Source of the DNA: an uncultured Candidatus Saccharibacteria bacterium
GTDB taxonomy: Bacteria > Patescibacteriota > Minisyncoccia > Minisyncoccales > UBA10102
DNA length: 64,000 nt
Direction of reading: 5' to 3'
NCBI GenBank assembly: GCA_964359655.1
Contig: CAYHVI010000002.1
Span: 176-64,175 of the forward strand
How positions within the stretch are numbered: position 1 is the first letter of the stretch; each line of letters starts with the position of its first letter. Positions 31,893 through 32,085 of the stretch are shown here, in pieces. A model generated the notes under the pieces. It ran no database searches. It was given only the letters and a program-made list of their open reading frames with translations, and had not been told where the DNA came from. The position numbers and the translations under genes were made by a program.

Positions 31893-31928
31893 CCAAAACA
31901 AAACAGAAAACCTCCCAGCTGGGAGGTC
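31893..31928 (-). terminator. Leader terminator, copy 1 of the ACCTCCCAGCTGGGAGGT palindrome plus U-tract
   Basis: GACCTCCCAGCTGGGAGGT followed by TTTCTGTTTTGTTTT, inside the 5' leader of the 73-aa ORF. Confidence 0.65.
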
Positions 31929-31955
31929 TTGCAAAGTTCGTGTGATGTAATGTGT

Positions 31956-32036
31956 TTATTTATGCAAAAAAATGACTCCCAGCTTTTGAGGCATTAAAAT
32001 CGTAATAATAATGATAATAAGATTTCGTAAACTCAT
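31956..32036 (-). CDS. Ile-run mini-ORF (26 aa), candidate leader peptide
   Basis: Own translation: MSLRNLIIIIITILMPQKLGVIFLHK. Codons 18-21 (AAG CUG GGA GUC) copy the right arm of the downstream terminator. Confidence 0.5.
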   Translation of the reverse strand: MSLRNLIIIIITILMPQKLGVIFLHK

Positions 32037-32055
32037 ACGCTGAAAGTCTAATATC

Positions 32056-32085
32056 TCTATAGCTCTTTTCATGCATGCTTGTCAA
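32056..32085 (-). promoter_or_regulatory. Sigma70-type promoter
   Basis: TTGACA, 18 nt, TATAGA on the minus strand. Confidence 0.55.

Follow-up and report, generated by a model that had tools for sequence, protein, structure and literature searches.

The subject of this study is a small leader region, and the gene it precedes, on the minus strand of a 64,000-nucleotide stretch of DNA (contig CAYHVI010000002.1, positions 176 to 64,175; hereafter the window). The gene is an open reading frame (ORF) for a 73-residue protein. Ahead of it lie a predicted promoter, a 26-codon mini-ORF with a run of isoleucine codons, and an intrinsic terminator; together with the gene, these make up what we call the Ile unit (Table 1). 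Three sibling units, with runs of other amino acids, are found within 3 kb of the Ile unit, and the four candidate attenuators are packed into 4 kb.

Translation of the minus strand bears out the original prediction, a model's reading of the sequence, that six Ile fall within codons 7–13 of the mini-ORF. Codons 7–11 and 13 specify Ile (6 of the 7 codons in 32018..31998) and codon 12 specifies Thr. This is the single place, in all six frames of the window, where at least six Ile occur in seven codons. On their own, amino-acid runs in short ORFs are no rarity: five or more identical residues in eight codons were found in 20 ORFs, the majority of them off-frame within genes. The exceptional feature is that a run occurs together with a promoter, a terminator and competing pairings.

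The terminator is partly copied inside the mini-ORF. The hairpin AAGACCTCCC-AGCT-GGGAGGTTTT (31930..31907) runs into CTGTTTTGTTTTGG; its loop and right arm recur exactly in AGCTGGGAG (31984..31976, codons 18–21), the match first claimed for these codons. The 9-mer occurs five times in the window against 0.38 expected, with four of the five occurrences lying within two copies of one palindrome. It had also been proposed that this segment can compete for the left arm of the terminator. Indeed, the best duplex between the leader and the left arm has an energy of −18.8 kcal/mol, as against −6.3 ± 2.0 kcal/mol for dinucleotide shuffles, and 0 of 500 shuffles reach it.

A further segment, located at the predicted 5′ end, completes the switch. 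Segment 1 reproduces the left arm of the terminator in degenerate form and segment 2 reproduces the right arm, which gives the leader the classical 1:2 / 2:3 / 3:4 arrangement. In both the minimum-free-energy and the centroid structures, 32048..32039 (GACUUUCAGC) pairs with 31983..31974 (GCUGGGAGUC) to form a 1:2 helix of 10 base pairs, including two G-U, that leaves the terminator intact. Left free, the leader RNA adopts 1:2 together with 3:4 (−41 to −42 kcal/mol, z = −5.3). By partition function the probability of the terminator is 1.00 for the full leader, and that of the antiterminator is 0.99 when segment 1 is left out. Segment 1 makes the RNA a true bistable switch. Moreover, when a 30-nucleotide (nt) footprint is placed on the Ile run and the transcript is cut ahead of the right arm, the constrained fold pairs segment 2 with segment 3. 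With its first base ~13 nt past the last Ile codon, segment 2 would narrowly clear a stalled ribosome; it also lies within the ORF, so that an advancing ribosome passes over it. The sequence elements, the pairing energies and the bistability are direct observations. Each structural element of the proposed leader-peptide and antiterminator model is present, beyond chance, and the support that this lends the model is architectural.

We consider it probable that the Ile unit is a ribosome-mediated transcription attenuator that senses charged tRNA-Ile and gates the 73-residue orphan gene. The promoter and start site, translation of the mini-ORF, ribosome stalling and the response to isoleucine are parts of this mechanism that we infer. 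Transcription would begin near A32049, and the AUG at 32036 would open the 26-codon frame in which codons 7–13 (AUU and AUC for the six Ile, plus one Thr) are the regulatory codons. With Ile-tRNA plentiful, the ribosome would traverse segment 2 (codons 18–22) to the stop; segment 2 would be masked or would re-pair with segment 1, the 3:4 terminator would form and the transcript would end at the U-tract. With Ile-tRNA scarce, the ribosome would stall on the run, between segments 1 and 2. The freed segment 2 would then capture the left arm of the terminator ahead of synthesis of the right arm, RNA polymerase would read through, and the 73-residue ORF would be translated from its own strong Shine-Dalgarno sequence.

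The promoter scan gave no promoter-like site between the terminator and this ORF. The read-through transcript is predicted to carry a long hairpin in its 5′ untranslated region, which overlaps and excludes a second terminator-like hairpin (31868..31841) located just before the Shine-Dalgarno sequence of the 73-residue ORF. On the basis of the fold, the long hairpin might serve as a further checkpoint or stabilise the 5′ end.

Table 1. Features of the Ile unit and of its three sibling units, with positions in the window
Feature	Position	Strand	Basis and remarks
Terminator hairpin of the upstream 107-residue gene, AGGGGTGAGACAAATTCTCGCCCCT then TTCTATTGA	32091..32115	minus	separates that gene from the Ile unit
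Predicted promoter: TTGACA (32085..32080), 18-nt spacer, TATAGA (32061..32056)	32056..32085	minus	read from sequence; predicted start A32049
Segment 1, anti-antiterminator, GACUUUCAGC	32039..32048	minus	at predicted 5′ end; pairs with segment 2
Leader ORF, MSLRNLIIIIITILMPQKLGVIFLHK	ATG 32036..TAA 31956 (stop 31958..31956)	minus	translation; 26 codons plus TAA
Regulatory run, codons 7–13, ATT ATC ATT ATT ATT ACG ATT	31998..32018	minus	sequence; Ile ×6, Thr ×1
Segment 2, AAGCUGGGAGUCA, core AGCUGGGAG at 31984..31976	31973..31985	minus	codons 18–22; pairs with segment 1 or 3
Segments 3 and 4, intrinsic terminator, AAGACCUCCC / loop AGCU / GGGAGGUUUU	31907..31930	minus	10 pairs, −14.8 kcal/mol
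Continuation of U-rich tract, CUGUUUUGUUUUGG	31893..31906	minus	sequence
Long hairpin in read-through 5′ untranslated region, U-tract and GGAAGAU with AUCUUCCAGGCCAAAACA	31853..31905	minus	fold
Shine-Dalgarno sequence AAGGAGG	31824..31830	minus	sequence; 6 nt ahead of the ATG (31817) of the 73-residue ORF
73-residue ORF, ending ...SPQSYHGCACTY (HGCACTY)	31596..31817	minus	gene callers; orphan, predicted all-helical
Terminator closing the Ile unit	31566..31589	minus	the 73-residue ORF's own terminator
Phe/Tyr unit	promoter 34764..34737; leader ATG 34727, 34727..34647; terminator 34623..34596	minus	leader MGLKQFFGYFYFFTDAVGKILVSKRA; then DAHP synthase (34507..33467)
Cys unit	promoter 33399..33372; leader 33364..33278; terminator 33247..33227	minus	leader MSYIISSCCGCACLQGPSGCEIFVATFA (MSYIISSCCGCACLQ...); then 53-residue ORF
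Leu/Val unit	promoter 31195..31168; leader ATG 31160; terminator 31035..31012	minus	leader MQTILNLTEQVLVLMLILVQPLWLGDLRYAYVR; then 55-residue ORF and tRNA-like gene

The sibling units share one layout with the Ile unit: a TTGACA promoter, an ORF of 26–33 codons with a run of one class of amino acid, a segment 2 a few codons later, and a terminator 23–32 nt from the stop codon. In all three siblings the ATG lies 8–10 nt past a TTGACA-16-TATAMT promoter, so that their mRNAs are essentially leaderless. Their free RNA forms a large 5′ hairpin plus the terminator, and masking a ribosome on the run frees a segment that pairs with the left arm of the terminator.

The Phe/Tyr unit is leaderless behind TTGACA-16-TATACT, with an antiterminator at 34682..34669 and a 12-bp terminator. 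Its ORF and that of the Ile unit each have 26 codons, with the run at codons 6/7–13 and the stop 23–25 nt ahead of the terminator. The Phe/Tyr unit precedes the gene for 3-deoxy-D-arabino-heptulosonate 7-phosphate (DAHP) synthase, the first enzyme of aromatic synthesis, which is a biologically coherent target for the amino acids sensed. This sensible target is our main reason for reading the whole set as amino-acid attenuators and not as small-protein genes.

Comparison of the Ile and Leu/Val units is also instructive. The terminator core is identical over 19 nt, the Leu/Val copy ending that unit's leader at 31033..31015, and segments 3 and 4 are shared. Segments 1 and 2, by contrast, differ between the two units and yet both pairings are kept. 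Thus, AGCUGGGAG (Ile) and GGUUGGGAG (Leu/Val) each pair with CUCCCAGCU, the latter via G-U pairs, and the 1:2 counterpart of GACUUUC/GGGAGUC in the Ile unit is UAAAUCUC/GAGAUUUA in the Leu/Val unit. Segments that differ and still retain both pairings argue for selection on structure.

Two siblings have features of their own. The Cys unit (33399..33022) has a basic 53-residue ORF with four Cys, where the genome average is 0.4%; a Cys-rich target is unexpected. The Leu/Val unit (31195..30648) has a mini-ORF with a Leu/Val/Ile run (MQTILNLTEQVLVLMLILV...) and, downstream, an acidic 55-residue orphan ORF. A tRNA-like gene lies 10 nt past that ORF with no promoter between them. ARAGORN calls it (30724..30648, minus strand) a tRNA-Ile(GAU); it fails the Rfam tRNA model, and its best match is tRNA-Sec at 23.7 bits. 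The anticodon loop, GCGAUCC, is without U33 and without a purine at 37, and the acceptor and T arms are normal-looking. In two relatives, the corresponding position upstream of khpA is occupied by a canonical tRNA-Ile. A further candidate, a Thr leader ahead of thrS, was rejected: the hairpin at 46756–46782 is the terminator of small membrane ORFs.

Several observations weigh against the Ile unit as an isoleucine-sensing attenuator. The −35 element is a perfect TTGACA, as in each unit of the island; the −10 element, TATAGA, lacks the conserved final T, which is why the promoter is absent from the promoter scan list, and the spacer is 18 nt. In the sibling units the −10 element is TATAAT or TATACT and the spacer 16 nt. 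The AUG at 32036 is the first start codon past the predicted start at 32049, ~13 nt from it, and has no Shine-Dalgarno sequence, whereas the siblings are essentially leaderless; translation of the Ile mini-ORF is therefore less certain than that of its siblings. Were ATGAAA-16-TAGACT (32072..32045) the promoter instead, the AUG would be leaderless at +9, as in the siblings. Segment 1 would then be lost, and what is left would be a three-segment attenuator with read-through unless a ribosome covers segment 2. A ribosome at the stop codon covers just the 3′ edge of segment 2, so that termination in the replete state depends on 1:2 re-forming. The nucleotides of the Ile run read YYHYYY in another frame, one with no start codon within the predicted transcript. 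The 73-residue target has no known link to isoleucine. Lastly, no collection searched holds a homologous locus in which the Ile run, or covariation of the pairings, could be tested.

The 73-residue ORF itself looks coding. Its in-frame codon score (0.16 bits per codon) is the top of the six frames and is at the level of hicA, the RAM-domain gene described below and rpsP. The product has a single Ile in 73 residues when ~5 would be expected from the 7.3% in the long genes of the window (binomial P ~0.03). This low content, the one tie between the target and isoleucine, fits a protein made during Ile shortage. The product is also Tyr-rich (5 of 73, versus 3.3%). The original prediction found nothing recognisable in it, and large sequence searches agree. 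A word-indexed search of 5.8 billion clusters and an exhaustive phmmer search of 1.84 billion representatives (~15 billion proteins) returned the protein alone, apart from one spurious match in a repeat protein (E = 2e-4). There was no match in Pfam (E ≤ 10), PHROGs, NCBIfam, PADLOC, PDB sequences or viral contigs. AlphaFold modelling had been suggested as a guide to the nature of the protein; the model, built without an alignment, has four helices, and with a predicted local distance difference test score of 57 it is too poor for a fold search. The suggestion that the product might be a precursor peptide found no support. For a precursor of a ribosomally synthesized and post-translationally modified peptide, the island has no maturation enzymes and the product no match in Pfam or NCBIfam. 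At best we would guess that the product is a small starvation-induced regulator or binding partner.

The next gene after the 73-residue ORF (31488..31261, minus strand) encodes a stand-alone RAM-domain protein of 75 residues, RAM being the amino-acid-binding, ligand-binding domain of Lrp/AsnC. This gene has its own perfect promoter, and its product returned itself alone in the word-indexed search.

The terminator core identical to that of the Leu/Val unit suggests recent duplication, and the switch could be what a duplication of that unit left behind: a decayed or retargeted paralogue, poorly transcribed or translated, with no Ile sensing. Expression of the 73-residue ORF would then be low and constitutive, or absent. 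We regard both parts of this explanation as unlikely, even though the Ile unit alone among the four has an imperfect −10, an 18-nt spacer and an AUG that is neither leaderless nor preceded by a Shine-Dalgarno sequence, and even though its target is an orphan. A decayed copy sits poorly with segments 1 and 2 that differ from the Leu/Val copy while retaining both alternative pairings, with a segment 1 placed exactly at the predicted 5′ end, and with sharp bistability. It sits poorly, too, with an open frame that has the window's single six-of-seven Ile run, and with a 73-residue ORF that has a perfect Shine-Dalgarno sequence, its own terminator and a coding-like codon score.

Could the leader peptide itself be the functional product? 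It is hydrophobic with a basic C-terminus, and the 5′ end of its mRNA is paired internally, an arrangement shared with several type I toxin mRNAs. A weak promoter-like site on the opposite strand (ATGACT-17-TAAAAT, 31972–32000, 9 of 12 matches) might give an antisense RNA, and a HicAB pair lies nearby. The mini-ORF would then be a gene for a small hydrophobic peptide, for example a type I toxin or membrane peptide, and the similarity of codons 18–21 to the terminator would merely stabilise or occlude the mRNA. We find the peptide gene improbable, and the lesser role for the similarity equally so. The apolar stretch of the peptide is 10 residues at longest, interrupted by Pro-Gln-Lys, and is therefore too short for a helix that spans a membrane. 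The sibling peptides are Phe/Tyr-rich and Cys-rich, not generally hydrophobic, and the Phe/Tyr-rich one belongs to the unit ahead of DAHP synthase. Moreover, the antisense promoter is much weaker than the consensus promoters found across the island, and the promoter scan gave the downstream ORF no separate promoter.

A real switch might instead sense tyrosine, matching the aromatic theme that the Phe/Tyr leader, DAHP synthase and the TrpR-like repressor give the neighbourhood, if the Tyr/His frame (…KSYYHYYYDF…SHFFA) were the one read. The repeat in that frame reads YYHYYY; the frame ends ...FFA-TAA, like the Cys (TFA-TAA) and Phe/Tyr (KRA-TAA) leaders; and a TrpR-like gene and operators flank the Ile unit. 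However, its sole start codons (TTG 32085 and ATG 32076) are in or just past the −35 element, upstream of the predicted transcript, and there is no ATG, GTG or TTG past the −10. The 73-residue product, being Tyr-rich and Ile-poor, fits sensing of Ile and not of Tyr. For these two reasons we rank the Tyr frame low, as very improbable. An ungapped alignment from the −10 also puts the leaderless ATG of the siblings on a codon of the Ile frame. An ancestral leaderless ATG in the Tyr frame, obtained with MAFFT, was withdrawn: the ungapped alignment leads to the Ile frame, and alignment therefore cannot decide.

Just as improbable is an RNA that acts independently of protein, whether a T-box-like tRNA sensor or a stand-alone small RNA of ~140 nt with an incidental ORF, for although the leader has a strong fold (the z-score above), its own promoter and a terminator, and terminated attenuator RNAs can act in trans in other bacteria (PMC6614838), the leader has no Rfam or T-box match even at E ≤ 10, and the four units share ORF geometry and amino-acid runs, not RNA sequence. 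All Rfam scores for the leader were far below the gathering scores. Among Rfam matches, tRNAs alone reach the gathering score, and those at E ≤ 10 are at chance level.

All contigs that have the 73-residue gene come from groundwater well H51 at Hainich (0.1 µm filter fraction) and, being 99.8–100% identical, carry no comparative signal. Among named organisms, TrmD places Candidatus Paceibacterota (79%), Wildermuthbacteria (75 and 72%) and Nealsonbacteria (69%) nearest, and the closest relatives found by metagenome scan and protein search with TrmD belong to the Candidate Phyla Radiation (CPR; 75–83%). Relatives share the gene order nusB-rnc-rpsP-[gap]-khpA-trmD-tRNA Tyr/Thr/Trp-def-PCMT-yceG. 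From the TrmD matches and the shared order we conclude that the host is a CPR/Patescibacteria bacterium. A Dehalococcoidia host, suggested by matches to the DAHP synthase, is overruled by the same TrmD matches and conserved synteny.

The four units lie in the gap between rpsP (39894..39526) and khpA (30068..29760), which spans 9.4 kb here. Most of this island (39526..30068) is made up of small orphan genes, and each gene has a promoter close to consensus as well as a terminator. The original prediction had looked to the neighbourhood in related genomes for clues to the 73-residue product, and none came: in relatives (TrmD 62–83%) the gap measures 0.3–4.7 kb, its orphan genes are unrelated, and leader units are absent. 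These differences in gap size and content mark the site as a hypervariable hot spot of the CPR lineage concerned. Independent assemblies also contain the junction of the island with khpA and trmD, so there is no chimera on that side.

The DAHP synthase (34507..33467) has an FXD domain and is closest to proteins of Chloroflexota/Dehalococcoidia (64–72%, the next being ~55%). Its Chloroflexota relatives have a trpB-trpA-aroH context and no Phe/Tyr leader, as judged by genome scan. This pattern suggests acquisition by horizontal transfer. The enzyme is Val-rich relative to the rest of the window. Searches of plasmid and phage DNA gave aroF as the sole match.

Other genes of the island lie upstream of the Ile unit. 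The palindrome AT(C/T)GTACTAGTACGAT is present in two copies, 32934..32919 and 32581..32566. One copy overlaps the promoter of a TrpR-like gene (32920..32609; Pfam Trp_repressor, 2.4e-21); the other precedes a 107-residue orphan ORF (32463..32140) with five Trp against a 0.9% average. The two palindromes look like putative TrpR operators, which would mean autoregulation and one target. The 107-residue gene closes with two hairpins (32141..32091). The island also has, on the plus strand at 35513..36080, a HicA toxin gene (Pfam, 1.9e-17) paired with a HicB-like ORF that has no Pfam match and was assigned by position and size.

What might four candidate attenuators be doing in such a host? CPR/Patescibacteria are believed to draw their amino acids from other organisms. 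Attenuation by leader peptides is a textbook mechanism, nearly always tied to biosynthetic operons and to well-studied phyla. Here, one of the four units precedes a metabolic enzyme and the other three precede tiny lineage-specific proteins, one of these together with an aberrant tRNA-Ile-like gene. We suggest, tentatively and with some doubt, that all four (Phe/Tyr, Cys, Ile and Leu/Val) are ribosome-stalling attenuators in one island, and that the ribosome thereby serves as a multi-channel amino-acid sensor driving small effectors and not biosynthesis.

The device would be of a known type; the orphan target, the CPR host and the four-channel cluster are what is unusual. If the Ile unit and its siblings work as attenuators, they open to direct test the way in which a minimal, host-dependent bacterium gauges its supply of amino acids. 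Orphan proteins that are otherwise without a functional clue would also be linked to a physiological condition, shortage of Ile, Cys or Leu/Val. The four-unit set is, besides, a compact natural example of attenuator duplication and change of specificity, with the Ile and Leu/Val units combining an identical terminator with different runs and compensating sequences in segments 1 and 2.

Type I toxin mRNAs (Ibs/Sib, Ldr, TisB, Fst) encode small hydrophobic peptides. The Ile unit resembles them in its small hydrophobic peptide, basic tail and internally paired mRNA 5′ end. It differs in that its apolar stretch is too short and there is no convincing antisense gene, in that terminator and antiterminator compete, and in that its siblings have non-hydrophobic runs.

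The Ile unit is closer to the leader-peptide attenuators of branched-chain and threonine operons, such as ilvGMEDA, ilvBN, thr and leu of E. coli and ilvBNC of C. glutamicum. Attenuators of this kind are treated in two papers (PMC11857589, PMC1183508). Like them, the Ile unit has a short promoter-proximal ORF with tandem cognate codons (IIIIITI), mutually exclusive 1:2, 2:3 and 3:4 pairings and an intrinsic terminator ahead of the regulated gene. Unlike them, it has a 73-residue orphan as its target instead of a biosynthetic operon, its segment 1 lies upstream of the AUG at the 5′ end without overlapping the regulatory codons, its mini-ORF has no Shine-Dalgarno sequence, and its host belongs to the CPR/Patescibacteria. 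A literature search returned no paper joining the CPR or Patescibacteria with leader-peptide attenuation.

Within the island, the Phe/Tyr unit matches the Ile unit in its 26 codons, its run at 6/7–13, its segment 2 at codons 16–22 and its TTGACA promoter. By contrast, it has a near-consensus promoter, a leaderless AUG, a segment 1 that overlaps the run and a target that matches the amino acids sensed.

Mycobacteria have leaderless polycysteine short-ORF attenuators that make up a 'Cys ribulon' (Canestrari et al., bioRxiv 10.1101/834739), and these are a precedent for attenuation by leaderless short ORFs with amino-acid runs. There, as here, several short ORFs at 5′ ends, each with a run of a single amino acid, act or would act as ribosome-stalling sensors in one genome. 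The mycobacterial poly-Cys ORFs act on translation by unmasking a downstream ribosome-binding site (bioRxiv 10.1101/834739), whereas the units described here carry canonical intrinsic terminators, and the Ile unit is probably not strictly leaderless. The close formal analogue of the mycobacterial poly-Cys attenuators is the sibling Cys unit, with its leader at 33364..33278.

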